A stretch of 64,000 nt of DNA, from assembly GCA_008632985.1 (NCBI GenBank), contig QPGO01000004.1, positions 124,001 to 188,000 of the forward strand, in the 5' to 3' direction. Positions 9,047 through 41,208 of this stretch are shown here, piece after piece. How positions within the stretch are numbered: the stretch's first letter is position 1; each line of letters opens with the position of its first letter. This stretch comes from Psammoneis japonica (lineage: Eukaryota). A program made the position numbers and the translations under genes. The notes under the pieces were generated by a model. That model saw nothing but the letters and a program-made list of their open reading frames with translations. It searched no databases and was not told where the DNA came from.

Positions 9047-11632
9047 GGTGGGTCAACTTTGTCGTGTCGCTGTCGTGTCGAGTGTTGTGTGCAGTGAAAA
9101 GCGGAAGAGAATTTTTGCGCTGCGCGGAGTTCGCAGTTCGGATCTTTTTGATGGATCTTGAAGCCATGTCCGTCCCTGTTGACTCTGGGGGCACCGTATG
9201 AGTTGAGACAGTGCCCTTTCTGAAGGCTGCGCTAGCTGCAGAGGAGAGCTGTGCCCAGAAACAAGAGAGCCCTCTAGAAAAGGTAGACAATGGAGGATGA
9301 TGCAACCAAGACTGTGCACAGGCTCATTGGAAAGCGCTGAAACTGTGCCAAGAGGATGTGTGAGAAATGAGCGCATGATGTCGTCAACACAGGGAACAAA
9401 CTCTCAGTGGCATCCACCAACAAATGACAAACAACCAGTTGCAATGACAATGACCAGCTGTGGCAACTGATGGAGCTCTGTTCACAAATGCTCAGCCTTG
9501 TCAGCGGCTGCACACCTGCGTGCGCTGTGCACCCGCCAGACACTTGTTGAGTCACGAGATGCCTGTTCTCTGGGGGGCCTGCAATGCCTCAAGTTCATGA
9601 TGTGTGTGCAAGTGCCCATCCCACACTCTTGCCCCCCACTCCGGGGCAAAGCGGTGGCTACGCTGCATGTCTGCAGAACCTCAAGTTCATGATGTGCACG
9701 AAGTGCCCCATCCCCACATTCCACGACCACACCCATCCAGGGTGTCACACCCAAAGCCATGTGCGCAATGACAACGTTGATGTCTGTTCATCAGAAGAGT
9801 TGCACACACAGCCAGGAAGTGCCAACAGTTTTTCTGACATTGTGGCTGACCAGTTGCTGCCAACAAGAAATCAGCAGCCCGCTGACAACTTACGACTGAG
9901 ACAATGGCAGCTCTCTCTCAATGGGCTGTGTTGAAGGCAATCAATTGGCTTCTTTTGGGAGTGATCGGCCCCATTGTCAAGAACAAAAGAGCATGACTGC
10001 AACAAAGAAAACTGCCAAATTCGTCATGTCATTGTCTTGCCATTGGCCTGGCAACACTTACCATGTGGCAGACCCATGTTCCCCAGTGCATCAAAGATGC
10101 TGCAGGGACCATGACTGTGGCAACATTTTATGTCGGTCACAACAAGACAATTGGTGGTGCTTGTTGTGCATGAAAACTGCAGCTGAAGACCAGACAAGCC
10201 CAGTCCACACCCAGTGGGATGGAGGCGCCAACAACACAGCAGAAAAAATGTGCGCCTGTCTTCAAAAGTCTGCTTCCTGGAAGGTGCAAGAGCTTCACAG
10301 CCATTTCTAGATCAGCCTGGAAGATGATGGCAAATGCTGAAAGAAGCACATTTGCAAACAATGCCGGCACACACTGTTGACAATCAACTGTGCAGAGCTT
10401 GACATGAGGAAGTGCCGAGAGGCCATGAAGTGAGTTTCAGAGGAACAATGAAAAGAAAATGATTGGCTCGGCAAATGCAGTCATCCATGTGGAAAAATCA
10501 GGTGCAGTTGGAAGAAGTGACCACTGCAAACATGTTCTCTCTTGAGAGGCCAAAGAAACAAGACAAGAAATGTGAGAATGTCATGGAGGCAGAATTGCAC
10601 AGAAAAAATGTGCTGCCATTGGGAACAAGAACGCAAAGAGCACAGCTGCCATGTCAGCAACGCTGCTCCTGAACAAAGGCACAGTGGATCATCCCCTCCA
10701 ACACCTTTGGTGTCTCTGTCATGGCACAGCTGCCATTTGTTCTAAAGTGCCCAAGGAGGTTGGCACAGTGCCAAAACTCTTGCTTGGGACAATCCCATGG
10801 GTGCTTGCGCAGAAAAGCAGGAAACTGCAGTGAATGAAAACATTGAGGCTCATTTCTGTGCACACACACCCAAGTTGTTGATCCTTGGTTGTCGTTGTTC
10901 ATTGGCCAGAGCACACTGACAATTTGAGCTGTTTGCTTGTCAGCTGGTGTGCTTTCTGCAATTTTGGCTTTCAGCGACACTTGCTTGCCACCCTGGCAAT
11001 GTTGACAATGTTCAGTGCATGCTCTCATGCTCTTGCTCCATGCTGTCATTCTGTCACCTTTGCTCCCTCTGTTCTTCAAACCACCACCCCGTTGTTTGCC
11101 CCATTGCCTCTTGCAGCCTGCCCTGCATCTTGGCATTCTTGGCTGTGCTGGTTGGCTGGCTCATCATGCCTGCTCCAATCTTTCATGCTTCAAAGAGAGC
11201 CAGTTTTTGTGACAGCTTTTTGTTGCAAGATGTGAAAGAAAAATCCCTGGCACGTTTTCTTTGGCAAGTGTGGTGCAATGCTGCTGTTTTTGCTCACCTG
11301 TGTGCAACGCTGCAGCACTTTGTTTCTTGTCCTTGGCTGATTTTGTCAACTTGTCTGAGTTTCAAGAAATGAAAAAGCACAAAAGGAAAGCAGCAGTTTG
11401 TTGTTGTTTGCCACAAGCTGCCTGCTCCCGTGTCAAACCTCTGACCTCTTGTCTTTCCCGCGGCGCTGGCATTTCTTTGTGTTGGCAGGTGCAGAGCCCT
11501 GGGTGTTGTTGGTGCCTTCAATCAGGTGCAGCACCTGTGTTTTCAAAGAGGACTTGTGTTTTGGCTCTTGTGATCTCGGCCAGCTCTTTGTGAGAAAGAC
11601 ATTTCACATTTGTGCTGACCTCTGCACACCAG

Positions 11633-11856
11633 CTTGTTTGTTTGTTTGTTTGTTTGTTTGCTTGCTTGCTTGCTTGTTTGTTTGTTTGTTTGTTTGTTTG
11701 TTTGTTTGCTTGTTTGCTTGTTTGCTTGTTTGTTTGCTTGTTTGTTTGCTTGTTTGTTTGCTTGTTTGCTTGCTTGCTTGCTTGCTTGTTTGTTTGTTTG
11801 TTTGTTTGTTTGTTTGTTTGTTTGTTTGTTTGTTTGTTTGTTTGTTTGTTTGTTTG
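11633..11856. repeat. (TTTG)n/(CTTG)n tetranucleotide microsatellite
   Basis: Directly visible ~224 bp tract. Confidence 0.97.
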
Positions 11857-12669
11857 TGTCTGGGGCTGCTGCTGGCACTGCAGAGCTGACATCTTTGTTG
11901 TGGCTGATCCACACAACCAACCCAGCAAGCAGCAGCAGCAGGCTGAGGGCACTGGCGGTCTTTGGCAGATCCCAGCAACGCTCCATGAACTGTGGTTGAG
12001 CGCCAAGCAGCGCAAGAAGGCTGGTGTTGTGCAGCTGTGGTGCCCTGTCTTCCCCTCCCTGCCAGAAGTGACGAGCACTTCAAACTGCAAACTCCAGAAC
12101 AAAAAAACCCATGGCAGTGCCAGCCAACCTGGCAGCAGCAAGCCGAGGGCATTGACAGTCTCTTGTGGACCCCAGGCAATGGTGCGGCAACTGCGGTTGA
12201 GCAGCGCAGCACCTTTTTGTGTGGCTGTGGCCCCACGTCACCATGTCCCAACAGGAGGAGCAAACTTGAAACTTCCTTGCTCCAAAGTGAAAGGACCACA
12301 AGGCAGCGCCAACAAACCCAACACCAGCTGCAAACTGAAGACACTGACGGCATCTGGCTGACCACAGGTGGCACTTTGAGGGTGGTTGTTGGGCACTGCA
12401 AGACTGGTCTTGTGATGTTGTGGCCCCATGTCACCTTGTGGTCACCGCGACTGCAGCCAGCAGACTTGACACCAAAGAAAGCCTGTTGGATGGACAACCT
12501 TTGTTCTGAGCTGCAAGCAGAAATCAAAGGCAGCATTTGTGTGACAAACACACACTTGCGCGACAAACATGGTGCAGGAGCAACACAGGCTCAAATGCAA
12601 GGCAACAGCTTTCTGTTTTTCAGCACCCCCAACAGACCCAACAAGCTGAGTGGAACCCTGGCACTGTGC

Positions 12670-13530
12670 AGCAGCTTTGTCAGCTTTGGCAAATTTGTCA
12701 ACTTTGGCAAGTTTGTTGACTCTGCCAGCTTTGTCAACTTTGGTGAAGAGTTTGGCTGCTTTGCAAACTTTGGTGGCTTTGTCTGCTTTGTCAATTTTGT
12801 CAACTTTGGCGACTTTTGTTGGCTCTGGCAACTCTGGCGAATTTGCCAACTTTGGCAAGTTTGTCAAATCTGTCAGCTTTGGCAAGTTTGTCAACTCTGT
12901 CAGCTTTGGCAATGTTGCCAACTTTGGCGAGTTTGTTGACTTTGAACTTTGGCACCTTTGTCTGCTTTGTGGCAATTTTGTCAACTTTGTCGACTTTGGT
13001 GACTTCGTCAGCTTTGTTGACTTTGGCAAATTTGTCAACTTTGGCAAGTTTGTCAGCTCTGTCAGCTTTGGCAAATTTGGCAAATTTGTCAGCTTTGTCA
13101 ACTTTGGTGACTTTGTCAGCTTTGGCAATTTTGCCAACTTTGTCAGCTTTGGCAACTTTGGCGAATTTGTTGACTTTGGCAAGCTTGTCAACTCTGTCAG
13201 CTTTGGCAACCTTGTCAAGTTTGTCAACTTTGTCAGCTGTGGTGCCAGCTTTGGTCAGTTTGGCGACTTTGCAGACTTTGGTGATTTCATCTTTTTTGGC
13301 AATTTTGTCAACTTGGTGCATTTGTCAGCTTTGTCAACTTTGGCGACTTTCTCACATTTGTCAGCTTGTTTGGGCAACTTTGTCAACTTTGCCAAGTTTG
13401 GCAACCTCGCCAGCTTTGGCAAGTTTGGCAACCTTGTCAAGAACTTTGGTGGTGAGTTTTGGTGACATTTTCAACTTTGGCGACTTTGTCAGCCAAAGGT
13501 GACAAAGTTGCCAAAGCTGACAAAGTGCCA
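12670..13530. repeat. Degenerate 9-bp-unit tandem array (AACTTTGGC / AAGTTTGTC / AGCTTTGTC variants), last units inverted
   Basis: Visible 9-bp periodicity; orientation flips at ~13495. Confidence 0.9.
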
Positions 13531-16500
13531 AAAACAGCCTCTCTCACACCTTTTTTTCTTTTCTTGTTTTCTCCTTTGACAACTGCCCCATCTTTTGTCA
13601 AAGCTGTCTTTTTTTGCTGCTTTCTGTCCACCACAGTTCACCAGCAGCACTTTGTTTTTCCAGCCTGCTCACATTTGTTTTAAACACATTTTCTTGCAAC
13701 ACACATGGCGGTTGATGGCTTGCTCATGTGTGTGCAATTGATGGTGAAAAAGAGATGCAGCGCAGAAGCCCAGCCCAAATCTCCTCATGAGGCTCCTCCT
13801 GTGGCATTGTCCCTGTTGCTGGCCAGTGTGTCAGCTGTTGCTTGTCATGCCATGTCAGGGTTGGGGCAAGGGATGTGGGAGAGGGAAAGAGAGAGACAGG
13901 AGAAACCAGCAGCCAAAATTGGGGTTGTGGGCAGCAGGGCTCACATTGCGCAATTTGTGCTCAGGTGGTGGGTGGGTCAGGTGGTGAGAGGAGAAAATGT
14001 TGCCCTTGATTTTTGTGTCTGTTTGCACTGTTGTTGGGTGATTTAAGTGGGTCTTGTGTTGCACTCATGTTTGGGAAAGTTGGGGGTGGTGTCAAGGGTG
14101 CACAAGTTGCAGAGATGGGCTGAAAGAGCAGCTCTTTAACACGCAAGTGTGTGAGCCACAAGTGTGTCTGAGGAGCCTGTGATCCCTTGGTCACAGCACA
14201 TGTTGTTTTCTTGGACTGGCTGTGCCAAGAGCCAAGTCAATCATTTGGGTGTCCATCAATGCACCGTTTCCTGAATGTGCCATCAAAATCTCCAATTCCT
14301 TTGTTTTGTCATGGCTTTGCTTGACTGCAAGAGCTGCGTCAGCTGTGGCAGCAAATTTCATCTCTTTTTGCTCTTTTCATCATGCGCGATGATTCCTGGT
14401 GCCCATTTTCATGTCATGGGCACTGCTTGTGCTCATGATGATTGTCGCAGTCATTTTGATTGTTGTTGCTGTCATCACTGTTTTGTTTTTGAGCTTTTTT
14501 GAAGACACGCTTTGACATTTTACAACCAGCCATGCTGTGGAGGTGTGTTTGATGTGCAGTTTCTTTTCACTGCAATGCTCTTTGTCAGCTTGCCTTGAGG
14601 GTCTTCTTGGTTGGTTGCCAAGTCATTGTTGCACATTTGTGCTTGTCTTTCAGCTCTGGCTGCTCAAGCCTCCTTTGAGGCAGGCTGTTGGGAAACAGTG
14701 TCATGGCATCTTGGTCTCCAGCTTGCAGCTGCTTGCTGATGGTGCCACCCGTTGTTGGTCACATGAAGCAATGCATGTTCACACTGCTTGTCCACAACTT
14801 CAGGTTGTGGAGTGCCTCTCCATCTTCACCTGCACCCAGCATCAAACATTCAAGACACTGGCGAGCTGCAAAGGACTCTGTTGTGCATGTTTCTGCAAAG
14901 ACAACTCTTCCAGTTGTTTGAGCTCCCAGGGTGTGTGGCCTGAGTGCACCTCAGATTGTTTTCAAGAGAATGAGTTTTGGCTTGGTGAGTTGATGCCAGC
15001 TCTGGATGGTGCTCATTGTGCGGTTGTTCTTGTGTTTTCTGTGGGAATCTCTTTGTTTGCATTGTCAAAGTCCCTGACAGTGTTGCCATGTGCTGAGTTG
15101 CACGCCACATTGAATTTTGCCCATCCTCCTGCTTCACAGGGCTTGTTTTCAATGACTCAGTTTGTCTCTTCCCAAACAGCACCATGCTTCAGGTTTGCTG
15201 TTTTCCGTTCCAGCAGCAAAGCATTTTGTTTCATGTTCAGGGTCATCCTGGAGTGTGCAAGAGTGACAAACTCTGCTTGCTCAATTTTTTGTCTGTTTTT
15301 CAGGGAGAGTTGACCCTTCAACCACCGGACTTTGCTCACTTGCGTCACAAATGACATGGCAAATGAAGCAATTTTCAGAAGATGGGCACGACACTTCACT
15401 CGCGCGATTTTGTTTTGGAGCGCGCATTCGCCAAAAATCTGGGGGAACCCTTTTTGCAATTTAGAAAGTTCAGTGTCAACTTTTGACACCGGGTTTTTTG
15501 CAAGCTTCATCTGTGAATGGAGAGGAGCCAAATCTCAACCTTTGACAATGGAGGTTGCCATGAGCTGCTGTCACAAACAGACAAACAATGCCACACCCTT
15601 GGAGCAAATCTCCGCCGGCGGAGATTTGCTCCCAATTGGCAAATGCGTGTGGCACACTTCACACAAATTGTGCGCCATGTGACATTTTCATGCTGTGCCC
15701 ATCACATTGTTGTTGCTTTGTTTTGTTGCAAGGAGCGCCATCAAAGGCTTGCTTGCCATGCTTGAAATCTGACTGAGTCATCTTTGGCAAATGATTGTGA
15801 GTCATGCTGCTCAAAAGAAATCTTGGATCCTTGCGAGCCATTTCTTGCATGACACACAGAGGTGAGCACATTGCATCAAGTTTGCAGCTGCGCTGTCTGT
15901 CAAAAAGGAATTGGCTCAATGAGAAGTTCATTTTGAAAGGAGAGTCTTTTTGTTGTTGTCAATCATGCAACAAGGAACACATTGGATTGAGGGGTGCACC
16001 ACTGTTGTGAGACACAGCGGATTGATGGCTGAGTTGTTGTTTGGTGTGTGGTGCCCCACACAACAACAAGGCACATGCGGCAGACACACTGGAAAAAGCA
16101 ATGGGCAACTGAGCTGAAGCTCTTTTAAATGAACAAATCAACTCTGAACAAGATGCTGGGCTACAAAACAAAGCACAAATCGACGACCGTTGAAAAATTG
16201 GCTGTCAACCTCAAACAACGACAAGGCGGCACCAGATTTGTGAGACTGACAATGAAGATCCAGCATCAGAACATTGTTTGGAATCTAATTGCAGGGATCA
16301 CCTTGGTTGAACTTTGAAAACTTGTGACACCTGTGAAGAGTGCTGTCACAGGCACAAAATTTTTTGATTTTTGTCAACGGATCTTCTCATTGCAAGAGTG
16401 AAAAGAACATGTTGCACACAGGGGTCTCCAAAGGTTTTTCTTCCATGTTAAATTGTCTGAGCCAACTGGCAATGGCAAACTGTGGCATTGTCATCAATGT

Positions 16501-17156
16501 TGTCAGCAATCAGTTGACCAGTGCTTGGCACCACCAAAAGTCATGGGCCGCTCCTGCATGGACATTCGAGAGCCAGGTGTGGGAGCGATGCTGCTCCAAT
16601 CAAAATGCTCTGTGACCCACATGTTCAAGTCAGACAACTTTATGATTTTAAGCACAAGCTTGCAGCTGGCAAGTGGGGGCTGGGCAGAAGCACGTGAAAG
16701 CCCCAGAAGTTCAGAGAGTGTGGCACACAGCACACACAGAGAGCTGTTTTTCTTCCATCCAGGAGCACACCCGCCCAACTTGTCAGAAGACGGAGTTGCC
16801 CATGACACAATCCTGTGCCCCCCCATGAGTGTGCTGCAAGTTGATTAATTAGAATGACAGAAAAATCTGCGGTCTCCATGCTGAGACGATGGAATGCTGA
16901 TGCATGCGTCGCGGTTGGAAAAATGGGAAGGGGATCGGAACGTCGGTCACATCCGGTCCGAATGACGTCACAGGAATGACTGTTTCCCTGGCATGTGACC
17001 GCGCGACCGCGTCGCTCACTTTTTTCGAGGTTGGATCGGGATTCCAGATTCGGGAGGCATCTTTGGTTGGATCGACGTCGTTGCCAACCTTTGAAGCAGA
17101 GTGGAGTGCTGTGTCCTGGTTGCCGCCCTTTTAAGCAGTTTACGAGGAACTTGTGA

Positions 17157-25200: not shown

Positions 25201-25446
25201 TATCTAATGTGTTTGGAGGGACAGCTCTAGCCGAAGCAATGTGGCATGCACTCAGATTGACACATGCTATCTATTGATAGATCTACTCTACCAGAGTGGC
25301 TCCAATGTGTTTCTCTCTAGATGCTAGATCCATCTACTAGAGCTTGGATGAAGATCCGAATGGTGGAAGTCACGAGACATCGTTCGATCGGTGGAGATTT
25401 TGTCGAGAGAGTATCTTCGTCCTGTGCAAATCTAACAGAATCAGCA

Positions 25447-27082
25447 TTATCTGCAGATAGACTCCCTAGCATCGATTTTGTGCTTTAGAGAGTCACTCCC
25501 AAGAGAGTTTAGACTCAGCTTCTCCAGATCCTTATTCGCATCGCTGCTTAATCGTTCTGCGTATTCGCTGCAGAAGTGCGTTGCTGGTGATCCGTGAACG
25601 CAACAGGGGCAAAAAAGGAATCGAACAGAACCTTTACAGTCCCGGTACCCATCTTTGAAGGTTCTGTTCGGCGATGAATAACCTTTCGATGTCGAATGGA
25701 TAAAGTAGGGGCCTTTGTCTCTTCGGAGCTTGAGTTCCATACCTACATGCCTAAAGTTCAGAGCTGGAATAGCACGGAAACCAAACATCATGTGTGTAGA
25801 ATTGGGCAACTTTGTTATCGGATCGCGGTGGTTCGCTACGCGGAGTACGTATAACTTGCGTTGTTTTTCTATAACCTATGTAGTTGCACAGGCACAAAGC
25901 GTGATTCTTAAACATCGCGTTTCTCGAGTCAAAGGAACAGAGACAATTTGCAATGGTCAGAACTGCAATAGAGCTAGTTCTACCGGACTTACCTCTACAG
26001 CATCGCGAAACGAGTCATTCCCAACCCGTGGAGACGCAAAGTTTAACGAGATCACCGGCAAAGTGATGTGGGGATTCGATGCAGTTGCAGCAGAAAAGAC
26101 AAACAAGGTGCTTAATGCAGCCCCGAGGCTGTGACCGGTTGAAAAGAGGTGGAACCCAGGATTCTCCTTCAATACGCCCTCCACCTCGCTCATAATTTTG
26201 TCAAATTTGCATATCTTTTGGTTCCTGCCTGTGCCGTAGAGGTATTGATGAAAACCAGCGTGAATCTTCAAGCCTTTTTCCATCGAAGCCACAGGGTTCG
26301 GTATGGTTTTCATCGATACATTTGCGTCTATCATCCAATCTTTCGGTGTCACTGAAAGACAATGCATTCACAAAAGTGAGGGAATTTTTTAATCTTACGA
26401 AATAGAGCGCTTCATTCGCAAGAAAGCATGCAAAGAGCTCACCTGATCCGCGAAATGTCACGACGACCCGTTTGTAAAGGCTGAAGGGAATTGAATCAAA
26501 GATCATATGAGACACCCTATCACACCCTTAGGACAAAAAGAACAGCACACATCCAAAATCCCACTCAGAGGGCTTACCGGTCCACTACTATCGAATACAC
26601 ACATTCGCTTTCGTTGTTCTCATCGTCAAACACCGACACTGTAGCTGGCGGTGCTGCACCTCTCGCGAAATCCAATTCCTTTCGTACTGCATCGATACAT
26701 CCCATGTATAATTCAGTCCCCTTTTTACCGAAGAATCGTTTTACTTCATCCTTGTGTTCCTCAAATGCATCGAACGCGAATTGGTCCGCTTTGCCTTCAT
26801 CTATTGAAAGGATTTCTTCTGCGGCGGACTCTCCGAGTTTACCTTTTCGCGCCAACTCCCTCAAGTCAGCAATTGCATATGTGAGGATGGAAGCTATATC
26901 GAGAGTTGAAACAGCAAATGGAAACCGTTTGTGGGCTCTACGCGCAGTGCACCTCAAACCGAGAACACACATCTTGACGTACCTCCAAGCAACAATTTCA
27001 AATCCTTGTACAAAGTATTTTCCGAAAGAGGGATTTCACCAGGCTTTGGAGACCTTTCCACTGCCATTTGCTTTGTCTCCAT
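25447..27082 (-). CDS. Class 3 lipase, multi-exon, copy 1
   Basis: Exons encode METKQMAVERSP..., VYSIVVD, VVVTFRGS, IHAGF, STGHSLGAAL, NFASPRVGN, RVANHRDPI; GT-AG introns. Confidence 0.88.
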
Positions 27083-27421
27083 CAGGGAATCGTCGCCCCC
27101 TGCTGTGTTCTTTGAAGTGCTGAGGTCGTTGTGCGTTTTTTTAGAAGAGACGCAGAACTCTAGCTAAGATAGAGTAGTCTGTCCGTCAGTTTTCTTGATT
27201 GATCGGCCATTGACCCCCGTTGATTAACGGTTTTGATGGCGGAAATGGCCTTCTCGGCTCGAGCTCGGCTTCTCACTAAATCGTTAGCTTTGCCGTGTTG
27301 AGAATGTTGAAGGTGTTTACGTAGAATCGTTCGTAGCCCCTGGTATGTTGGGGGCCCTACGACTGAATGTACTGGGTGGTGTGTGCCGAGGGGCCTCCAT
27401 CATCACAAAAAGAGCAAGAAA

Positions 27422-28886
27422 ATGGCGCGCCCGAAGAAAAAGGCGAGGCACCAGGGAAGGTTTGGTGCCCGAGCCCCTTCCGTATATGATGAAAATGGGC
27501 AAAGGCGTTTTCATGTTGGTCATCAGCATCGACTCCGCATGGTTTCTGATGGTGATGATGTGTGGAGACGCCGAAATGACAGTGACAGACGAAAGGGCAT
27601 GTGGGACTCTATCGTGCATCGTCATGGACGAGAAATGGGATTTTTGAGTCAGGACTCAAGCCCAGAGCTTGAAGAATGTGAGTCATCAAACCCTCTGTTT
27701 CAAGAAACGAGGGTGCGTGTAAACTCCATCCAGCACAAGCCCAAGAAATGCGCGGCTCGGGCCACGACCCAGAGCAATTTCGAGTGCTTTTTGAAGGCAA
27801 AATTCCCGAATGATCCACACACGCAGCATCTGAATGGATTGCTCCAAAAAACAGAGGATCGTCATATGAACCCATCAGTTGTTCTAATGAGACAGAAGTT
27901 GGAGCCACCGCGAGAAGAAAGTCTCATTCTGTCTTGCACGAAGTGCTTGCGAGACGGGGCTCCTGTTGGCAGGAGTTTGAAGCACGGAATGACATCCCTT
28001 GAGCTCAATTTATTGTCATGTACATTGATTAAGTTTTCACACTCGAAGGGTCTGAATTGCACTGCTGAGATTAAAAGGTGTTGGAGTCATGTGAGGAGGA
28101 GGATGATGTTGCTCGTGCTGAAGCTTTTGATCTCAAGGTTTTTCTGCCCAAGGCTTGGGATCAGCTCTGGCGACAAACTCCAGGCCTTTCTCACACAAAA
28201 AAAAGGTTCGCATTTGGTTGAGACTGCTTGGTCAGCTCTCTGTCATTGGGCATGCATCAGATGTGTCTGAGCACTGTCCTTTGGTGTCTAAGACAACTCT
28301 GCCTCCTGGGTCGTCGACTGCAAATTGGCTAAAGGATGGGACGCCTTGGCACTTGGACATTTCTTTTGTCGACTGGAAGGGCAGGAAAGCAACAAACGTC
28401 GGGAATCCACACCACATTCGAATTTGTCATAATCCAAAAAACTTGAAATATGACCCAGTGACTTGGATGCTTAAGGAACGGCGTTGTCGTGGTGAAGTCG
28501 AAACAAGGAAGCCGGACGCTCCAGCATTTTTTTTCGTTTCGGAGCAAACTTGGAACAAGCAGCTCAAGAGGTGCATTTGCAAGCCACTGGGACTGTCACA
28601 CACGTCCCACAGCATTCGCCGCTCGGCCGCTCAGTGGGCTTCTCGTTGCGGTGCCAACATTGCCGTTGTTCGAAACGTTGGTCGATGGGAGTGTCTGGCG
28701 GAATTACTTGAGTGCGTCGCCAAGGGAAACAAACGGAATCGTCTTGCGAGTGAAGACGACGAAGACCCAATTTTTAAGTTTTGGCCGTTCTTTCCCAAAA
28801 CGTCCGTGACGGCCTTGGCCACCACCACAGAACAAGCCAATGCAATGCAGTCAAGGGCGCCAACGGTCCGTTTCAACCAGTTTTAA
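27422..28886 (+). pseudogene. Tyrosine recombinase (Crypton/DIRS-type YR), left arm, frameshifted and hypermutated
   Basis: Joined ORFs 27383..28270 and 28155..28886: MARPKKKAR (NLS-like)...IG[H]ASD...WKGRK...HSIRRSAAQWA...VGRW...LLE[C]V, matching R..K..HxxR..W..Y once CGT>CAT and TAC>TGC are reverted. Confidence 0.8.
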
Positions 28887-30041
28887 AAACAACAGCAGTC
28901 ATTCTCATGTTGAACTCTTGTCTTTTTTTGAAACTAGAGGCAGTCGCTCTGCTGTTGTCAGTTTTGTCTTGACATGACTGATGCAAGTCTCGCACGACTG
29001 ATGTCAGTCTCATGCCAGAAGTTGACACAAAGCTGTTTTGGACATCTGCCACTCGTCGGCTTTCTTGATTCGCCGAGTCGCCCGTAGAATGATTGTTGTG
29101 CTGGTTGGACGCAAGCTTCTCCCAGTCTGGATTTTGAATCTGAGCTTCAGTCTTCAGCTCGCTACATTTTGACAACATTTCTGCCTGCTTGAGATTGATC
29201 TCATGTGGCAGTGTTCCAAGTTTCTTAATCGTCCAATGAGCTTTTCGGCACTGTGCAAGCTTCGAGTCACCGCCAAGATTGTGCCTCTTGAGTTCAGCAG
29301 ACGACCACAGGTGGATTGGAGAATGCACTTGATTTCTTGTTTCATCTGCAACCTTTTCTTCATGTGCACGGACCACTGCAGTGGCATGTGTCTCCTCTTC
29401 TGTTTTAAAATGCAACTTTGAAACAAAATTCTTGTTCCCCCCACCTTGTGGTAGAGTCAATGTCGACGGAGGCAACCGCTTGCCAAGTGGTGCTGAGTCC
29501 GGCACTTGTTCTTGCCGGGGAGGAGCTGGCAGGCAAGAAGGATCCATCACATGATTTGCCTGCACCTGGCGAAACCCATGACAAATCATTTCATCTCTCA
29601 TGGCTTCTGTTGAAACAGAAAACAATTCGTCAGTGAATGGATTTGCAAAAAACAACGCATCTTTGAAAAGAGCGACTTGCTCCAACACAATCGGCCGTGT
29701 AGACTGATTGGTCACTCCGGCCCCAGCAACGGCACCACACTCGTTGATGCCACATTTTGTCAAATGGCACTCGGCATCCCTTTCAAAGGAGTCCAGGTTG
29801 AACTCCCCAAATTCCTTGTCCCAATCCCTTGTTGCTGACATCGTGTCGAACAACTCTTCAACAGTTTGTGACGGTGGATGGGGGCAAATCGAAGCCATCT
29901 CGCCATCAGAGTCTCCAGCTTTGGCATCATTGGCCATGTTGTCAGCCATGTCGAGGGCTTGATTCACATCTGACGAGTCTAAAAACGGCGACGTGACACA
30001 TGAAAATGCAGCTCGTCATCATCGTTCTTTTGAGAAATCAT
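28873..30041 (-). pseudogene. ORF2 of the YR element (unknown protein, ~390 aa), left arm, convergent with YR
   Basis: 364 aa ORF 28873..29967; probable upstream ATG at 30041 separated by an indel; mirrored at 30393..31560. Confidence 0.6.
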
Positions 30042-30392
30042 CAGCTGGAGCTCGGAGGGAGAGGTGGGGTTTCCCGTGTTGACCGGGGGTTCGAGTCTCG
30101 TTGATCACCGCAGACGCTCCGCAGGTGCCTGCACTGGAGGTTTCGTTCATCGAGGCCCTCGATCAATGATCGACCCACAGAAAGCTGCCTCCACAGCTGG
30201 CAGGTCACGCTTGCACCCCCTGCGCACTGCTCTGTTGGTTCAGAGGTGGCTTTCTGCGGGTCGATCATTGATCGAGGGCCTCGATCAACGAAGCCTCCAG
30301 TGCAGGCACCTGCGGAGCATCTGCGGTGATCAACAAGACTTGAACCCCCGATCAACGTGGGAAACCCCACCTCTCCCTCTGAGCTCCAGCTG

Positions 30393-31560
30393 ATGATTTC
30401 TCAAAAGAACAATGATGACGAGCNTGCATTTTCATGCGTCGTGTCACCGTTTTTGGACTTGTCAGATGTGAATCAAGCCCTCAACATGGCTGACAACATG
30501 GCCGATGATGCCGAAGCCGGAGACTCTAATGGCGAGATGGCTTCGATTCACCCCCATCCAGTCACAAACTGTTGAAGAGTCATTCGACGCGACATCAGCA
30601 ACAAGGGATTGGGACAAGGAATTTGGGGAGTTCAACCCGGACTCCTTTGAAAGGGATGCCGAGTGCCATTTGACAAAATGTGGCATCAACGAGTGTGGTG
30701 CAGTTGCTGGGGCCGGAGTGACCAATCAGTCTACACGGCCAATTGCATTGGAGCAAGTCGCTCTTTTCAAAGATGTGTCACCTTTTGCGAATCCATTCAC
30801 TGACGAATTGTTTTCTGTTTCAACAGAAGCCATGAGAGACGAAATGATTCGTCGTGGGTTTTGCCAGGTGCAGGTGAATCATGTGATGGATCCTTCTTGC
30901 CTGCCAGCTCCTCCCCGGCAAGAACAAGTGCCGGATTCAGCACCACTTGGCAAGCGGTTGCCTCCGTCGACGTTGACTCTACCACAAGGTGGGGGGAATA
31001 AGAATTTTGTTCCAAAGCTACATTTTAAAACAGAAGAGGAGACACATGCCACTGCAGTGGTCCGTGCACATGAAGAAAAGGTTGCAGATGAAACAAGAAA
31101 TCAAGTGCATTCTCCAATCCACCTGTGGTCATCTGCTGAACTCAAGAGGCACAATCTCGGCGGTGACGCGAAGCTTGCGCAGTGCCGAAAAGCTCATTGG
31201 ACAATTAAGAAACTTGGAACACTGCCACATGAGATCAATCTCAAGCAGGCAGAAATGTTGTCAAAATGTAGCGAGCTGAAGACTGAAGCTCAGATTCAAA
31301 ATCCAGACTGGGAGAAGCTTGCATCCAACCAGTGCAACAATCATTCTGCGGGCAACTCGGCGAATCAAGAAAGCCGACGAGTGGCAGATGTCTAAAATGG
31401 CTTTACGTTAACTTCCAGTGTGAGACTGACATTGGTCACATGAGACTTGCACCAGTCATGTCAAGACAAAACTGACAACAGCAAAGCGACTGCCTCCAGT
31501 TTCAAAAAAAGCTGAGAATTCAATGTAAGAATGACTGCTGTCATTTTTTAAACTAGTTGA
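30393..31560 (+). pseudogene. ORF2 of the YR element, right arm (frameshift ~30560, premature stop 31395)
   Basis: ORFs 30357..30575 and 30505..31395 nearly identical to 28873..29967. Confidence 0.6.
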
Positions 31561-33007
31561 AACGGACCATTGGTGCCCTTGACCGCATTGCATTGGCTTG
31601 TTCTGTGGTGGTGGCCAAGGCCGTCACGGACGTTTTGGGAAAGAACGGCCAAAACTTAAAAATTGGGTCTTCGTCGTCTTCACTCGCAAGACGATTCCGT
31701 TCATTTCCCTCGGCGACGCACTCAAGTAATTCCGCTAGACACTCCCATCGACCAACGTTTCGAACAACGGCAACATCGGCACCGCAACAAGAAGCCCACT
31801 AAGCAGCCGAGTGGTGAATGCTGTGGGACGTGTGTGACAGTCCCAGTGGCTTGCAAATGCACCTCTTGAGCTGCTTGTTCCAAGTTTGCTCCGAAACAAA
31901 AAAAAATGCTGGAGCATCCGGCTTCCTTGTTTCGACTTCACCACGACAACGCCATTCCTTAAGTGTCCAAGTCACTGGGTCGCATTTCAAGTTTTTTGGA
32001 TTATGACAAATTCGAATGTGGTGTGGATTCCCGACATTTGTTGCTTTCCTGCCCTTCCAGTTGACAAAAGAAATGTCCAAGCACCGAGGCGTCCCATCCT
32101 TTGGCCAATTTGCAGTTGATGACCTAGGAGGCAGAGTTGTCTTGGACACCAAAGGACAGTGCTCAGACACATCTGATGCATGCCCAACAACAGAGAGCTG
32201 GCCAAGTAGCCTCGACCAAATGCGAACCTTTTTCGTGCAAGAAAGGCCTGGAGTTTGTCACCAGAGCTGATCCCAAGCCTTGGGCAGAAAAACCTCGAGA
32301 TCAAAAGCTTCAGCGCGAGCAACATCATCCTCCTCCTCATGTGATTCCAACACCTTTTTAATCTCAGCAGTGTGATTCAGACCCTTTGAGTGTGAAAACT
32401 CAATCAATGCACATGACAACAAATTGAGCTCGAGGGATGTCATTCCATGCTTCAAACTCCCACCAATGGGAACCCCGTCTCGCAAGTGCTTCGTGTGAGA
32501 CAGAATGAGACTTTCTCGCAGTGGCTCCAACTTCTGTCTCATTAGAACAACTGATGGGTTCACATGACGATCCTCTGTTTTTTGGAGCAATCCATTCAGA
32601 TGCTGCGTGTGTGGATCATTTGGGAATTTCGCCTTCAAAAAGCACTCGAAATTGCTCTGGGTCGTGGCCCGAGCCGCACATTTCTTGGGCTTGTGCTGGA
32701 TGGAGTTCACATGCACCCTCGTTTCTTGAAACAGAGGGTTTGATGACTCACATTCTTCAAGCTCTGGGCTTGAGTCCTGACTCAAAAATCCTGTTTCTCG
32801 TCCATGACGATGCACGATAGAGCCCCACATGCCCTTTCGTCTGTCACTGTCATTTCGGAGTCTCCACACATCATTGCCATCAGAAACCATGCGGAGTCGA
32901 TGCTGATGACCAACATAAAAACGCCTTTGCCCATTTTCATCATGTGCGGAAGGGGCTCGGGCACCAAACCTTCCCTGGTGCCTCGCCTTTTTCTTCGGGC
33001 GCGCCAT
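31548..33007 (-). pseudogene. Tyrosine recombinase, right arm, disrupted
   Basis: ORFs 32258..33046 and 31799..32170 mirror the left-arm YR; HSIRR has become HSIHH; internal stops. Confidence 0.78.
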
Positions 33008-33879
33008 TTTCTTGCTCTTTTTGTGACGATGGAGGCCCCTCGGCACACACCACCCAGTGCATTCAGTCGCAGGGCCCCCAACATGCCAGGGGCTGTGAAC
33101 GATTCTACGTGAACACCTTCAACATTCTCAATGGCAAAGCCAACGATTTAGTGAGAAGCCGAGCTCGAGCCGAGAAGGCCATTTCCGCCATCAAAACCGT
33201 TAATCAACGGGGGTCAATGGCCGATCAATCAAGAAAACTGACAGACAGACTGCTCCATCTTAGCCAGAGAGAGGGCCTCTGCTCTGGAGGCAAAAAAAGG
33301 GTTCAGGGGGGGAGGTGGGGCTCCCCAGTTTATTTGTCTGGCAAGATGGGTTATGAGCCACTAGGAGGTGCCACGTAGGAGCAGTCTCCAGCACGCACTC
33401 AGCAGCACGTGGCACGGACCACGACGAGAGCATGGTGCACAGAGCACGGTCACAGTGCACGCAAACTGCAATGAAGATGCCATCCATTGCAAGAAGATGC
33501 CATTGAACAAACACACCATGGAAGATGATGCGCCTGCTGCGGATGAGTCTTTTCTCTCCTGAGGAACTTGTTCAATGAGAACCAAACAAGAGTTCTCAGA
33601 CAAGATCGCACACTCTCTCTCTTTCTTGCATGCAGCAAAAGGCCTGTCTGGGTGCCTGGCCAGAGCAGACTGCAGTTTGATGTGTGCAATGGATTGCATG
33701 ATGATGGTTCAACCTAGACTGGTGCCATGCTGTAGAGGGCATAATCCCCAGGTTTGACAGGCAGTGTGATGCATTCCAAAAACTGGGCCCCCACTTTTTT
33801 GTCGGGGGGGGGGTCCCTTTTTGTTGCGAAGTGCTCCCCCCACAGCTCTGTGTCAGAGGAAGCCACCAATCGAGCCAAG

Positions 33880-35575
33880 CTGCACTTGTTTTGCGCCATG
33901 CCATGCCACAAGTGCAGGTGTGAAGTGCCGCGGGACTACAAACATGCCTTGGCCCTTGATGAGCACAATGGCAGCCACAAGTGGGGAGATGCAACAGACC
34001 TCAAGATGACTCAACTGGGCAAGTGCAAAGTCTTCCATGATTGTGGGCACTGCAAGGACTCTGGCACCCCACCAGCAGGGCACAAGAAGATTTGGGCGCA
34101 CCTTGTCTGCGATGTCAAACATGACGGCAGGCACGAAGCATGGCTGTTTGCTGATGGGCACCTCACAGACATGCCCGCAGACAGTGTCCATTCTGGTGCA
34201 GCATCCCTCCCTGGCCTCCGACTGATGATCTTCCCAGCTGAGCTCAATGAGCTGCTGGAGACATGGGCAGCCAATGCTGGCAATTCCCGCCTCGAAGCCA
34301 CAGCCAAGGAGAAACTGCACATCATTGCAGGTCCCGAATTTTTAGATTTGGAAGGACACACCCTTGTCATCCACAAGGCTCTGCATGGTCTCTGCAGCTC
34401 TGGCCTCAGGTGGCATGAGCATTTTGCCAATTGTCTGCGAGCTGAAGGGCTCTTCCCACACTGTGCCAAACCCGACATCTGGTTGCACTGGAATGGTGAC
34501 CACCATTGTGATCATGTGGCAGCACATGCAGACGACCTGGCCTTTGCCATGAAAGATCCCCAGGTCTTTGTCTGCAATCTCATGGAGAAACGCAAGCTCA
34601 AGCTCAAGGGCACTGGACCACTGGAGTTTCACCTTGGTTGCAACTTCTCTTGCAACTCCGATGGCACATTGTGCCTTGCTCCTTGCAAGCATGTTGAATG
34701 CATGGTTGAGAATTGCGCGTGCCTTTTTGAGGAGAATCCTTGTGCTGATGTGCTGCCCCCTCTCAAAAAGGGAGACTGCCCCAAGCTCAACACCTTCAAA
34801 GAACTGCTGGAACCCGATGGCAGCATCCTCTTCAACTTCAGTCCTCAGTTGGTTCCCTGCAATGGGCTGCATTGCTTGGTCACATTGACATCACTGTGGC
34901 TGTCATGTCTCTCTCTCTCTTTCTGGCTTCCACATGGCACCCTGTCAAGGCCATCTGGACCATGCCAAATGGTGTCTGTGGACACTTGTCCAAGATGTGA
35001 CATGGTGCCCTGTGTGTGCACACCACTGAGGAACCTGATGTGGAGGAATTGATTCCCAAAGATGTGCCCAAGCCTCTTGGCAAGTTTGTCACCAGCATGA
35101 CTCACTGTGCTGTGATTTGAGCTTGTTCCATTGCATGCTCGCTGGACGTTCCGTCACAGCAGGCATCACTCATTTCCTCAACAAGTTTCTGGCTGATCAG
35201 TTCTCCCAAGAAACAAGCCAAGGTTGAGACTGCAACTTGTAGATCTGAGTTTGTTGCTGCCAGGACATGTGTTGAACAGATCATCAATCTGCACATCACA
35301 TTGCATTGCCTTGGCATCCTCATCTGTGGCACATGTTGCATGTTTGGGGACAACAAGTTTTTGTTGTGGACAGTGCCACCATCCTGCACTCCAAGTTGCA
35401 CAACAAGCAACAACCACCTTCTCATTCCATTGTGCGCATGAGGTGATTGCCTCTGGTTTCCTTGAGTTTCACTTTGTCAAAGGTTTTCCTGCAACCATGC
35501 TGACACCCTCAGCAAACACTGGGGTCACTCCCAGCCAGGTTTGGAACCTTCTCTGTCCCCTCATGTTTTGGAGCT
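33880..35575 (+). mobile_element. Ty1/copia LTR-retrotransposon relic (reverse transcriptase + RNase H), hypermutated
   Basis: PRDYKHALALD..KW, HLVCDVKHDGRHEAWLFADGHLT, KALHGLCSSG, VAAHADDL (from YVDD); downstream KKQAKVETAT.SEFVAARTCVEQ, MFGDNK, HEVIASG, ADTLSKHWG. No LTR recognised. Confidence 0.92.
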
Positions 35576-36495
35576 TCAATCCTGAGGCCTTCAGTCAATC
35601 CAACTTTGAAGCTGTTGCTGTGGACTCCTCAAGCAAAACTGTGGAATGACAGGATTTAAACAAGATTTTAGTTTGTCGCGCACAATTGTGTGTGCTCTTG
35701 GCTCCACATGCAACTTTTGATGCAGTTTTCTTTTGAGCCACTTGGCTCACAAGAACAATGGCAGCATTGCCAACATTGCTCAACCCCAGTCTTTTGGTTC
35801 CTGCAATGGTCTCTGCACAGAGATTCATCTGCCATTTAGACAGCAGAAAGGAGTCATTGGTTTCTTCCACCCATTTCCTCTTCAATTCTGTGAGGGAGGT
35901 TGCACACTGCAATGTTGTGATCATTTGACAAACAGCCAAAAGATGCAAAATGTCTTTTGAAATGTTGGTGGGAACCAATGACTGGGTTTGCTTCACCGAT
36001 GACATCCAAGCCAGCAAACTTCAACTTTTTTTGCTGTTGTTGATGAAAAGCAAGGCTGGGGCTCAGCAGCTGGCAGCATGATTTTTTGATGACCACAGAC
36101 CACCTTGAGGAGTTTGTCCAACTGATCAGGGTGAGTTTGTTCATCTGACCAGGGTGTGACTGCAAATGTTGGAATTGGTGTTGTGACAGAGAGAGAAGAA
36201 AGCAACAAGCAAAGTGCGCCATCAGATTTGTCGAAAGCTGCCAGCAGCTGCACATGCCAAAAATCACAGCAGACAGCAACACAAGCTTTTTGATTTGAGA
36301 TTGAGTGACACACATTTTGTCACACAAATGGGTGCATAAAAACAAGCACCACAATGATGAGAAAGAGCACAGCAGCAGCACGATGCTGGCTCTCTCTGGC
36401 AATGTTCCACAGCCACGGTGCGCGCACTGACATGCCATGTCATGAAAGAGGGGCCTCAAGGATGGGAGCAGATGAAGAAGAAAGTCACAAAAAAA

Positions 36496-36727
36496 AAGGC
36501 TTGCAGAGATTCTCTGGATTCAAATTGTCAATCGGATGGACAGAAATTCCAGAAGAAGAGGGGCACAACACTGTGAAAAAAGCAAGGTCAACCTCACAGG
36601 GGAAACAGGACAAGAACAACAAACAGTTCACTCATGTCACGCCGTTCAAGGACAATGTTGGGGAACCAGAAAAGGAGACAGAAAAGGAGAGCAGCACCAA
36701 CACAGAAGGCTTGCAGAGATTCTCTGG
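36496..36727. repeat. 22-bp direct repeat AAGGCTTGCAGAGATTCTCTGG, two copies 210 bp apart
   Basis: Copies at 36496-36517 and 36706-36727; each contains the inverted repeat CAGAGA-T-TCTCTG. Confidence 0.85.
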
Positions 36728-37283
36728 GTCCAACACATGAATCCGGCAAGAGGTTGAAGGCACAAAGTCGACGCTGTGCCAGATCAAGCCAGACAAATGG
36801 AGGAACTCGGGGTGCCAGTGGTCACATGTTTGACTGCATGAACAGACAGTTGGAAAAGGGTGATTTTTCTGTGTGGAAGACTCATTTTGTAACTGATCCC
36901 ATGTTGCCAACTGCCTGCCAGGAACAATGAGGAGGATTGCTTGCGGGTCGGCCTGCCTCGTCTCGTCGTCCGTCGTCTGTCCTCCAAGAGCCTGGCTGCC
37001 GATCAAGCACTGAGATCCTTTTCATTGTGCTTTGCCTGTCGTTGTCTTGGCTGCTGAGAGGTAGGGCCCTAACTATCTAGTTGAAGGGATGTCTCTAGCC
37101 GAAGCAATACGGCATGTACTGAGATTGATACATGATGTCTCTATTGATAGCTCTAATCTACCAGTAAAGATCCCTCTAGGGCAAGGATCAAGATCCGAAT
37201 AGTAGTCACGAGCACGTCATTCGATCGATGGAGATTTCGTCGAGAGAGTTCCTTTGTCCTGTGCAAATCTAGCTGAATCAGCA

Positions 37284-38906
37284 TTATCTGCAGATAGACT
37301 CCCTAGCATCGATGTTGTGCTTTAGAGCGTCACTCCCAAGAGAGTTCAGACTCATCTTCTCCAGATCCTTATTCGCATTGCTGCTTAATCGTTCTGCGTA
37401 TTCACTGCAGAAGTGCATTGGTGGATATCCATGAACGAAACAAGGACAAATAAGACATCGAAAAGAACCTTTACAGTCCCGGTACGCATCTTTGAAGGTC
37501 CTATTCGGTGATGAGTAACCTTTCGATGTCGAATGGATGAAGTAGGGGCCTTTGTCTCTTCGGAGCTTGAGTTCCATACCTACATGTCTAAAGTTTAGAG
37601 CTGGAATTGCGCGGAAACCAAACATCATTTGTGTAGAATTGGGCAACTTTGTTACCGGATCGCGGTGGTTCGCTACTCGAAGAACGTATAACTTGCGTTG
37701 TTTTTCTAGAACCTGTGTAGTTGCACAGGCAGAAGCGTGATTCTTAAACATCGTGTTTCTCAAGTCAAAGGAGCAGAGACAATTTGCAACTGTCAGAACT
37801 ACAATAGAGCTAGGCCCTAGTTCTGCTTGACTTACCTCTACAGCATCACGAAACGAGTCATTCCCAACCCGTGGAGACGCAAAATTTAACGAGATCACCG
37901 GCAAAGTGATGTGGGGATTCGACGCAGTTGCTGCTGAAAAGGCAAAAAGAGTGCTCAAAGCAGCCCCGAGGCTGTGACCGGTTGAAAACAGGTGGAACCC
38001 AGGATTCTCCTTCAATACGCCCTCCACCTCGCTCATAATTTTGTCAAATTTGCATATCTTTTGGTTCCTGTCTGTGCCATAGAGGTACTGATGAAAACCA
38101 GCGTGAATCTTCAAGCCTTTTTTTATTGAAGGCACAGGGTTTGGCATGGTTTTCATCGATACAGTTGCGACTATCATCCAATCTTTCGGTGTCACTGAAA
38201 GACAATGCATTCACAAAAGTGAGGGAATTTTTTATTTTACGAAATAGAGCGCTTCATTCGCAAGAAAGCATGCAAAGAGCTCACCTGATCCACGAAATGT
38301 CACGACAACCCGTTTGTAAAGACTGAAGGGAATCAACTCAAAGATCATTTAGGACAAAAAGAACAGCACACATCCAAAATCCCACTCAGACAGGGCTCAC
38401 CGGTCCACTACAATCGAATACACACATCCGCTTTCGTTGTTCTCATCGTCAAACACCGACATTGTAGCTGGCGGTGCTGAACCTCTTGCAAAATCCATTT
38501 CCTTTCGTATTTCATCGATACATCCCATGTACAATTCAGTGCCCTTTTCACCGAAGAATCGTTTTACTGCATCCTTGTGTTCCTCAAATGCATCGAACGC
38601 GAATTGGTCCGCTTTGCCTTCATCTGTTGACAGGATTTCTTCTGCGGCGGACTCTCCGAGTTTGCCTGTTCGCGCCAACTCCCTCAAGCCAGCAATTGCA
38701 TATGTCAGGATGGAAGCTATATCGAGAGTTGAAACAGCAAATGGAAACCGTTTTGTGGGCTCTACACGCAGTGCACCTCAAACCAAGAACACACATCTTG
38801 ACGTACCTCCAAGCAGCAGTTTCAAATCCTTGTACAAAGTATTATCCGAAATGGGGATTTCACGAGGCTTTGGAGACCTCTCCACTGCCATTTGCTTTGT
38901 CTCCAT
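37284..38906 (-). CDS. Class 3 lipase, multi-exon, copy 2 (recent duplicate of copy 1)
   Basis: Same exon structure and GHSLG motif; introns and 3' flank (from ~37093) align with 25224-27110. Confidence 0.88.
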
Positions 38907-39225
38907 CAGGGAATGGTCGACTCCTGCTGTGTTGCCGACGTTGTAGAGTAATTATTACTGTATGCCGCGTAGCGCGAAGCGATGGAATGCCGAAATGAAA
39001 AGAGATTTCCCGCGCGTCTGTCCTCTGTCCGCTAGGTTATTGAGTACCGGGCCAGTACAAGTAGACTACCAGTATGCATACGGTACAAGAGCATAATCTG
39101 CAATCTGCAATGCGGATTATTTTTTCTACTACAAGCTAAATTTCGAACATCAAGGCTAGTAAAGGCACTTGTCTTTAGCAAGAATAATCTCAACAAAGAG
39201 TAGCATGGTATCTCTAAACGATGCT

Positions 39226-40798
39226 TTACCTACAATTCGATTCCTTCAAATTGATTTCCCTTTTGTGCGAGTCGTTCCAAAGATGGCTGAGTTTAAGTGA
39301 TTCCAGTTTCTTTGAAGCTTTGTTCAAACGTTTTAGGTACGTCGCACAGAAGTGCAAACCAGGAGATCCGTGAACAAAGCAGCTCGATGCATCTCTGACG
39401 TTATGACCCATGTCTTTGAAGAATGTAGATATGGGTAAGTAACCCCTGGATGTTGAATGGATAAAAGCGGTTTGCCCCCCTTTCTTCAGTTTCAACTCCA
39501 AACCTGCATGCCGATAATTACGTGACTTAAGTAGCCGAACGCCACAGAAAGCAGTTCCAGAGTTGGGCATTGTCGTAACTGGATCACGGTGATTTGCTAC
39601 TCGGAGTAAGTACAACTTGCGCTGCTTTTCAAGAACCTGTCTCAGCGCACAGCAGACTTGTCAGTTCCTGTGTGACAAGTGGTGTAGCGATGCGATATCA
39701 TTCTTTGTGGTCGTTTCTCACTCACCTCCACAGCATCGCGAAAGACATCGTTACCGACCCGAGGTGAAGCAAAGTTAACAGCCACCACGGGTTCTGGTAT
39801 GATTGGATTCGACGCGGTTGCTGCTGAAAAGGCAAAAAGAGTGCTCAAAGCAGCCCCGAGAGAGTGCCCTGTCGACCAGAGTCGAAATCCAGGATTTTCA
39901 TTTAATAACTCTGTCGCCTCGCTCATAATTTTGTCGAATGTACTTTTCTCTTGGTGGTGATGCTTTTTGTAGAGGTAGTTGTAAAAGCCAGTATGTATGT
40001 TCAAGTGCTTCCTTTCTACAGACTCTACTGGGTTCGGAAGATGCTTCATGGATGAGTCTGCATCGATCAGCCAGTCCCTTGGTGTCACTAAGAAATAAGG
40101 TCAGAGTTGAAAAACAAAGTCCTACTCGCCCAAGGCACTCTTCACGTTCGACTCACCTGATCCACGAAATATAACCACAACCCGTTTTAATTGCCTAGCA
40201 AGAAGTGCATCATAAGTGCAACGTGAGATGCAATAACAACTAATCCGATAGCCCGCCAACAAAAAGTAAATCACTCACTTATCAACCCCAATCGCATACA
40301 CACATCCACTTTCATTGTGCTCATCGTCGATCACTCCTCTCGTGAATGGTGGAGTCCCGCCTTGCTCAAAATTCAATTCTTTTTGCACATCTTCAATACA
40401 TCCCAAGTATGTTTCAGTCCCCTTTTCACCGAAATTCTTGATAATGGCTTGTCTGTTTGCTTGAAAGGCGTCGAAAAGGTAAGGGTCCTTTTCTCCGTAC
40501 TCATCAGAGAGAATATCTTTTTCAAGTTGAGCATCACCCAGTTTTCCTTTTCTCGCCAACTCTCTGAGTTGAGTAACTCCGTAGATCCAAACAGATCCTA
40601 TGGAAAAAATGCAGAGCGAAAATTTCGATTGAAGATATCATGGAATGTTAGGGAAATAACAATGTTTGGCCCAGACTGACGTTTAATCAACTCCAAACTA
40701 ACGAACTGCGCTGGTATCTTACCCGCGAGAAGAAGTTTCAAATCCTTAAACAAGGAATGATCGGAAACAGGGCCCGCTTCTTCTTCTTTGTTTGGCAT
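39226..40798 (-). CDS. Class 3 lipase, multi-exon, copy 3 (more diverged)
   Basis: MPNKEEEAG...LFKDLKLLLAG, VYAIGVD, IHTGF, STGHSLGAAL, NFASPRVGN, RVANHRDPV; equivalent intron positions. Confidence 0.86.
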
Positions 40799-41208
40799 TA
40801 TCGTCGTAGTCGCATACATCAAACTCGCAACAGCGTTACGCTTCAAGCACCATGCCCACCGACGCTGCTCGCTAGAGTAGGTACCGGTAGGTCGTCATGG
40901 CAGATTCTTGCAAGATAATATTATGATGACGACTCTTCGCGATCTTTTGCGCGCGAGTGCCTTCGCGCGCCACCTGCAAAGGAATGAGGAATTTTGAAGT
41001 CACAAATCGCATTTTGCATTTCCCATCATCTCAGGACGGAGACGGAGCGGACACAATGAGCGATGAGAGGAGACTTCCCGCTTGCTTTGTCTTGTGGTGG
41101 TTGTTGTTTGTTCAGTACAACTTTAGTATCGTTGGTACAGTATCACCCTGTTGCCATAGAGGGAGTAATATCTTCTCGGTATCATAGAGGAATTCGGCCA
41201 CGAAAATA

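Follow-up and report, generated by a model that had tools for sequence, protein, structure and literature searches.

Cryptons in the broad sense are DNA transposons whose recombination gene is a tyrosine recombinase (YR) only. In the available part of PMC3212892 they are proposed to excise as circles and integrate by site-specific recombination; CryptonS is known there from oomycetes and a diatom, and most CryptonS elements measure 2.8-3.7 kb (supplementary file 1). CryptonV is named as a further Crypton group in the accessible portions of PMC8869645 and PMC5753468. As far as the available text of 10.1101/2022.05.23.493040 goes, the active Chlamydomonas element CryptonF-1_cRei recombines with separate target sites and produces inversions; rearrangements arise between oppositely oriented copies or between one copy and a free target, and copy number goes up despite excision. 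Here, we describe a locus of Psammoneis japonica at which two copies of a YR element abut in inverted orientation. It lies in a 64,000-nucleotide stretch (GCA_008632985.1, contig QPGO01000004.1, positions 124,001 to 188,000), hereafter the window. The original prediction, made from the letters of this stretch, had proposed a giant palindromic element. That claim falls, and a YR DNA transposon of a new type remains: the locus is apparently a one-off, compounded from two copies of a Crypton-like family that appears to be undescribed.

Self-comparison of the window recovered the two predicted ~3.03-kb inverted arms (27158-30191 and 30243-33269) as seven collinear pieces, and the palindrome is therefore real. 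In the arm-to-arm alignment 2838 of 3044 columns matched (93%), the rest being 181 transitions, 6 transversions and 19 gap columns; arms that differ this much cannot come from a read folded back on itself. The mobile DNA itself runs from 27165 to 33262, and the outermost 7 bp on each side differ among copies and behave as target. As predicted, each arm carries an inward-pointing YR gene and a convergent second open reading frame (ORF2) transcribed outward from the center (Table 1). Together the two genes fill the arm, and the predicted absence of reverse transcriptase (RT), gag and DDE genes held, the arm frames tested being negative in Pfam; likewise, no HUH, RT or DDE gene gave a Pfam match in the unit or in the family members tested. 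In both arms, His has replaced the first catalytic Arg and Cys the catalytic Tyr, and both recombinase copies at the locus are dead, judging by their codons.

Elsewhere in the genome the same element occurs as a monomer. With arm A as the query, the 91-Mb, 597-contig assembly of the source genome gave at least 54 matches, of which two were the arms and the others lay on 22 other contigs; searches with protein queries further revealed a more distant subfamily, on C44, C7, C106, C68, C131, and C54. None of 32 stretches from the same genome (4.5-10 kb, fetched around copies) held an inverted second copy, and the inverted matches seen in them lay outside the element or in nested inserts. A right-end query of 121 bases had 7 matches: five other copies reach the end, whereas arm B stops at base 107 and arm A at base 73. 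The right ends of C17, C120, C83, C101, and C36 continue through the sequence formerly taken as a spacer into unrelated flanks, indicating that arm B is a whole monomer and that arm A is short by its last 45 bp. Thus, the predicted spacer of ~47 bp does exist between the arms, but it is not separate DNA; it is the ordinary right terminus of arm B, that is, 45 bp plus the terminal dinucleotide. Both element ends were found in C17, C120, C83, and arm B. The mobile unit, a monomer of ~3.07 kb, is bounded on both sides by TA and carries two convergent genes. The monomers have no long terminal inverted repeat, and a pattern search of the genome found no integrated right-left junction. The idea of an element palindromic by design is not borne out by these results, and its fallback, a one-off inverted duplication, gains support, as no other copy examined has an inverted partner. 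Whatever the route of its formation, the locus is very likely a one-off pair of a monomeric element.

Further monomers with the same YR and ORF2 unit were seen at L099, L101, and L104 of the source genome, which represent a second, more distant subfamily. Other candidates for an inverted pair were rejected. Palindromes of 500-740 bp beside the distant copies L100, L102, and L103 belong to a nested insert that splits ORF2, in one segmentally duplicated copy. This insert (~4.3 kb; L100:5613-9888, and likewise in L102 and L103) begins with a palindrome of 700 bp, after which comes a 9-bp tandem array that resembles the array at 12650-13500 of the window. The 600-bp palindrome in L017 has no match to the window and is not a second dimer; it is an AT-rich fold-back element (L017:7036-7638) without TpA depletion, lies 390 bp from the C101 copy and has CTAGCTAG on both sides, and it possibly uses the same kind of target as the YR element. 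In C217 and C155, pieces occur on both strands but cover nonoverlapping parts of the unit, corresponding to internal inversions.

The recombinase belongs to a broad family. A decayed YR copy used as the query found two intact relatives, 50% and 32% identical, and a profile built from both found 448 representatives at an E value of ≤0.001 and 231 at 1e-10 (clusters at 50% identity). The YR measures 460-530 amino acids. Members throughout the family retain the catalytic R, K, H-x-x-R, W, and Y, including the R-H-R-Y set that is decayed in both window copies. In a Pfam scan, 27 of 58 members matched Phage_integrase weakly, and none of the 58 matched NDC10_II, GCR1_C, DUF3504 or the telomere-resolvase families at an E value of 0.1; a PF00589 scan of the source genome had no match, and among viral contigs none of 61 candidates was a relative. 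The best solved relative of the family profile was Cre (E value, 9e-09). In line with this, the predicted structure (predicted local distance difference test score, 83.6) superposed best on Cre (Z score, 18.0; root mean square deviation, 3.9; 283 aligned), followed by XerH (15.5), with Ndc10 at 8.5, TelA at 8.0, QRICH1 at 7.1, TelK at 6.3, and ResT at 4.8. A Foldseek comparison agreed, and the recombinase is thus Cre-like in its fold.

Inverted dimers are replication intermediates of protelomerase replicons (TelK, TelA, and ResT), whose enzymes share the superfamily, and the original prediction had pointed to such a telomere-resolvase link. The comparison speaks against it: the Z scores for protelomerases are 8.0, 7.6, 6.3, and 4.8 versus 18.0 for Cre, and no telomere-resolvase Pfam family matched. 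Moreover, the center of the locus is an asymmetric junction formed by the 47-bp terminus of arm B, with no symmetric hairpin-telomere site, and the other copies are monomers, with no second dimer among the 32 stretches.

Compared with Cryptons in the broad sense, the element shares the YR catalytic set, the absence of an RT, DDE or HUH gene, and interspersed copies with common ends. CryptonS comes close, with a YR as the sole recognizable enzyme, a size of ~3 kb, a low copy number, a short (here variable) terminal direct repeat and no long terminal inverted repeat; a likeness in the motif order GRASD, CPxH, SHSxRR, GxW, and Y was noted by eye alone, from rows of supplementary file 4 of PMC3212892. 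Nevertheless, our element strictly repeats TA alone and has a palindromic target, not TATGG, TTACTG or CTGTAAG, and TATGG-type repeats of 5-6 bp are absent; it has a conserved convergent ORF2 of no known family in place of the C48 peptidase, and its YR is nearest to Cre. CryptonF has an Ndc10-like YR with GCR1_C, neither of which was detected among the 58 members, and the family profile scored at most 1.6 bits, no match, on the 11 NDC10_II loci of the source genome. CryptonF-type elements with NDC10_II above the cutoff and long open frames coexist in this genome (L111:742-3273, L112, and L120). CryptonA and CryptonI have a DUF3504-type YR without an extra gene, unlike the present family, which lacks DUF3504 matches and carries a second gene. 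Cre of phage P1 with lox is the best match in both sequence and structure over the core-binding and catalytic domains and likewise has inverted half-sites around a short spacer; identity is 13-15%, however, and our family differs in its extra N-terminal region, its eukaryotic transposon context, its imperfect 5-bp half-sites and its symmetric core. DIRS, Ngaro, and VIPER share a YR integrase, and an ALOG/Phage_integrase cluster stood at rank 9 of the feature search, but the monomer has no RT, RNaseH, gag, inverted terminal repeat with internal complementary region, or split direct repeats. The literature searched, to which subscription journals and Repbase did not belong, gave no description of this YR and ORF2 family or of such an inverted dimer. 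Of the proposed undescribed palindromic YR family, the two-gene YR family without RT or DDE stands, whereas its palindromic nature does not; it is apparently an undescribed Crypton-like family with termini unlike those of CryptonS.

The second gene has an intact relative at 64% identity and, in the distant intact element L072, a counterpart in the convergent frame adjoining the YR (29% identity; E value, 2e-21). L072 also retains the 74-bp left cis signal at 69% identity, indicating that the two-gene layout is old. ORF2 has no family match in Pfam, PHROGs, NCBIfam, PDB sequences or Atlas; judging from its conserved position alone, it most likely encodes a DNA-binding or directionality cofactor. 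No element-scale inversion was found in 10 metagenome loci, of which L072 and L076 alone extend far enough to show one; L072 continues ~520 bp beyond the ORF2 start with no inverted repeat, and most of the other nine end shortly after the YR. Genes beside the intact relatives (L068:12-1406, L069:1-2889, L072:420-1763, and L076:348-1193/3325-4347) had no Pfam match, and by eye we take them to be dioxygenase-like (2-oxoglutarate/iron), with, in L076, also what is presumably a RuvC-like resolvase without a Pfam match. These neighbors may be cargo of larger elements.

The junctions of the locus were then read against those of the other copies. Allowing for TpA decay, left ends have the form TA-AGATAGAG and right ends the form CTACTAGC-TA. 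TA is directly repeated at both ends, the repeat growing up to CTAGCTA in some copies and being just TA or CTA in others. Left flanks lean to CTCTAGC (38 of 63 bases in nine other copies) and right flanks to GCTAGAG (23 of 35 bases in five other copies), against a background of ~2.2 of 7, so the target appears to be a loose palindrome centered on TA, CTCTAGC-TA-GCTAGAG. The outer flanks of the locus both match a target half at 7 of 7 positions, and on either side the symmetry goes no further than the left end of the element. Another inverted repeat, CTCTA-N6-TAGAG, is found 45 bp inward of the right end and is intact in C36, and the terminus of arm A coincides exactly with a half-site edge of this recombinase-like internal repeat.

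On these grounds, we favor, with moderate confidence, an origin in which arm B was already resident and its sister, arm A, inserted in reverse orientation at arm B's right junction, which resembles a target, giving arms joined right end to right end within one target. The unit would excise as a circle and reintegrate by site-specific recombination, following the Crypton model. As the right end, CTACTAGC-TA, resembles a target half, an inserted copy would regenerate the target at its right junction, and as the rebuilt target would be symmetric, a second copy could enter either way round. Arm A would have entered arm B's right junction reversed, leaving the arms between the two halves of one original target. 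Its missing 45 bp may mean that the recombinase took the internal CTCTA-N6-TAGAG as the end, or that a perfect palindrome was trimmed on one side of its center; PMC7999016 reports milder fork stalling in eukaryotic cells when inverted Alu repeats were separated by a spacer of ~50 bp. Both copies would then have decayed through TpA and CpG mutation. The inversions of the Chlamydomonas Crypton are consistent with this proposal, although its target is asymmetric (CAYCG) and its copies lie 233 kb apart, and the available part of that account includes no abutting inverted Crypton pair (10.1101/2022.05.23.493040). Plain nesting, with arm B inserted at the internal site of arm A, was rejected, since arm A's 45-bp tail is not found to the right of arm B, where 36 bp of target-like DNA are followed by a separate ~420-bp repeat.

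The relationship between the arms was evaluated through transversions. The arms differ by 0.2% transversions versus 3.6-7.3% to six other copies, and 99 transversion columns are private to both. The unlinked pair C120 and C36 shows 0.46%, and such close yet unlinked sisters make the sisterhood of the arms compatible with separate events. Since the split, 31 dinucleotides have mutated in opposite directions and 102 in one arm alone, indicating much decay after the arms separated. The direction of change was the same at 48 of 61 sites for the arms and at 59 of 78 for the unlinked C120 and C36, and the Tyr codons change alike in all copies. TpA observed/expected ratios are 0.0-0.2 in the repeats of the window (9000-17000, 28000-36500, and 55000-64000) versus 0.3-0.9 in gene-rich parts, the loss in repeats being TA to CA or TG. 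A signature of TpA loss is reported for Bigelowiella in the accessible part of 10.64898/2026.01.13.699255 and matches the decay of both arms.

Several observations weigh against a second insertion into arm B's junction. The Arg-to-His change at the first catalytic Arg is common to both arms, while three other copies retain the Arg, a hint of a template that was already dead or of sequence exchange between the arms. The target consensus is post hoc, derived from the very flanks it was tested on, which makes its P values optimistic; no more than 3 of 7 positions agree in 4 of the 9 left and 2 of the 5 right flanks. A single original target is what we infer, and two independent flanks would equally sum to the consensus palindrome. 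Neither an empty-site allele nor an empty paralogue was found by paralogue comparison (homology to the neighboring lipase paralogue ends at 27109, and it was rejected as the empty site) or in the read data, for which assembled contigs from three runs of one sample, probably the source sample, were searched; the best 16 of 1147 contig pieces included no empty-site joint and no piece bridging the center. Among the 7 matches of the right-end query, no other copy ends at the internal site. Finally, two dinucleotides derived from TA remain at the central junction, a 2-bp departure from a clean exchange at that site.

The same features can be arranged in a recombinase-free way. A replication fork or repair end would have changed template where the target halves flanking arm B form a 9-bp inverted microhomology, copied the element backward and returned at the internal CTCTA. 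Such a host-made inverted duplication would suit arms that are nearest sisters with a dead catalytic Arg codon in common, and according to PMC7999016, palindromic duplications in yeast mutants can be set off by inverted repeats as short as 5-9 bp. It fits poorly with breakpoints that both fall on recombinase-type sites, with the TA-derived dinucleotides that bound arm A as in a normal insertion, and with the extensive change since the split; overall, we regard it as unlikely.

An extrachromosomal inverted dimer, made by recombination of two circles or by amplification of a circle, might instead have integrated whole through its two left ends as a rare event. Both outer ends are indeed left ends, the flanks sum to one perfect target, the arms are nearly identical in transversions and the sites are symmetric. 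Many relatives also lie on contigs of 3.0-3.2 kb, a size that fits circles and, equally, collapsed repeats. We hold this to be quite improbable because the case is single among the stretches searched, L072 runs past its ORF2 start without an inverted repeat, the fold is Cre-like and not protelomerase-like, and the center is asymmetric. Slightly worse placed, and also improbable, are two nearby insertions in opposite orientation followed by deletion of the intervening DNA and of arm A's tip. Unlinked sister pairs such as C120 and C36 do occur in the family, and independent flanks would likewise resemble target halves, but three events are needed, with one deletion end exactly at arm B's terminal dinucleotide. 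An assembly artefact, either a fold-back chimera or a misjoin at the single N (30424, 184 bp from the spacer), is very improbable despite that N near the center and the lack of a bridging contig among the pieces above, since the arms differ at 187 substitutions and 6 indels, with differences also in the 181 bp on either side of the spacer that lie left of the N, the sequence on both sides of the N is in register with arm A, and a contig from the sample bridges the outer junction of arm B (33226-33504).

As for the surroundings, three Lipase_3 gene copies lie in tandem (25213-27109, 37081-38933, and ~39000-40800), the first two ~93% identical, and ~10 kb of mobile DNA including the inverted pair sits between these two. 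The repeat to the right of arm B (33299-33721) has at least 14 other near-full-length copies in the genome. Next to it is a decayed Copia-type RT region at 33745-35500 (RVT_2; E value, 1e-05), and a tandem array with 8- and 12-bp spacing occupies 11580-11920. The features of the locus itself are listed in Table 1.

Table 1. Features of the inverted pair, in window coordinates
Feature	Position	Strand	Evidence or remark
Left half of the putative palindromic target, CTCTAGC; host side, not element	27158..27164	+	1-7 of 7 matches across 11 left ends
Arm A, monomer from terminal TA without the last 45 bp, ending at the left half-site of internal CTCTA-N6-TAGAG	27165..30193	+	Match to right-end query (121 bases) stops at base 73
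Left subterminal cis signal, TTGAT-rich	27193..27266	+	69% identity over 74 bp with L072, equivalent position upstream of YR; E value 6e-10, two-sequence comparison
Arm A YR pseudogene	27422..28886	+	Frameshifts near 28073 and 28197; catalytic Arg1 codon is His (28251), catalytic Tyr codon is Cys (28713)
Arm A ORF2, ~303 codons, no assigned function	29038..29949	-	Stop codon now CAA; frame continues to 28873
47-bp "spacer", made up of arm B's final 45 bp and its terminal dinucleotide	30194..30240	-	Alignment with other right ends
Arm B, complete monomer, 3069 bp, reverse orientation	30194..33262	-	Right-end and left-end comparisons
Arm B internal inverted repeat, CTCTA-N6-TAGAG type, decayed	30230..30245	.	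Intact in C36 copy; homologous site is the end of arm A
Arm B ORF2	30486..31395	+	Frameshift near start
Arm B YR pseudogene	31553..33007	-	Internal stops; catalytic Arg and Tyr codons lost
Right half of the putative palindromic target, GCTAGAG, one base decayed	33263..33269	+	Flank comparison

Overall, the palindrome is one accident, yet its junctions reveal the ends of the element, a symmetric TA-centered target and, within the right end, a further recombinase-like site. A bolder possibility, which we consider a long shot, is that these elements make up a eukaryotic superfamily of their own, consisting of Cre-like two-gene transposons. Their symmetric sites, the end junction and the second site 45 bp inside, would let excised circles form inverted dimers for amplification, and the locus would be one of these dimers, captured by way of both its left ends; if true, it would be the first sequence trace of copy-number gain by excising YR transposons. 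The family is wide, includes the intact two-gene member L072 and is closer to Cre than to Ndc10- or DUF3504-type Crypton enzymes; because Pfam cutoffs miss it, it is likely unannotated in algal genomes. An intact member would allow a compact test of how YR DNA transposons gain copies and would be a source of new Cre-like recombinases.

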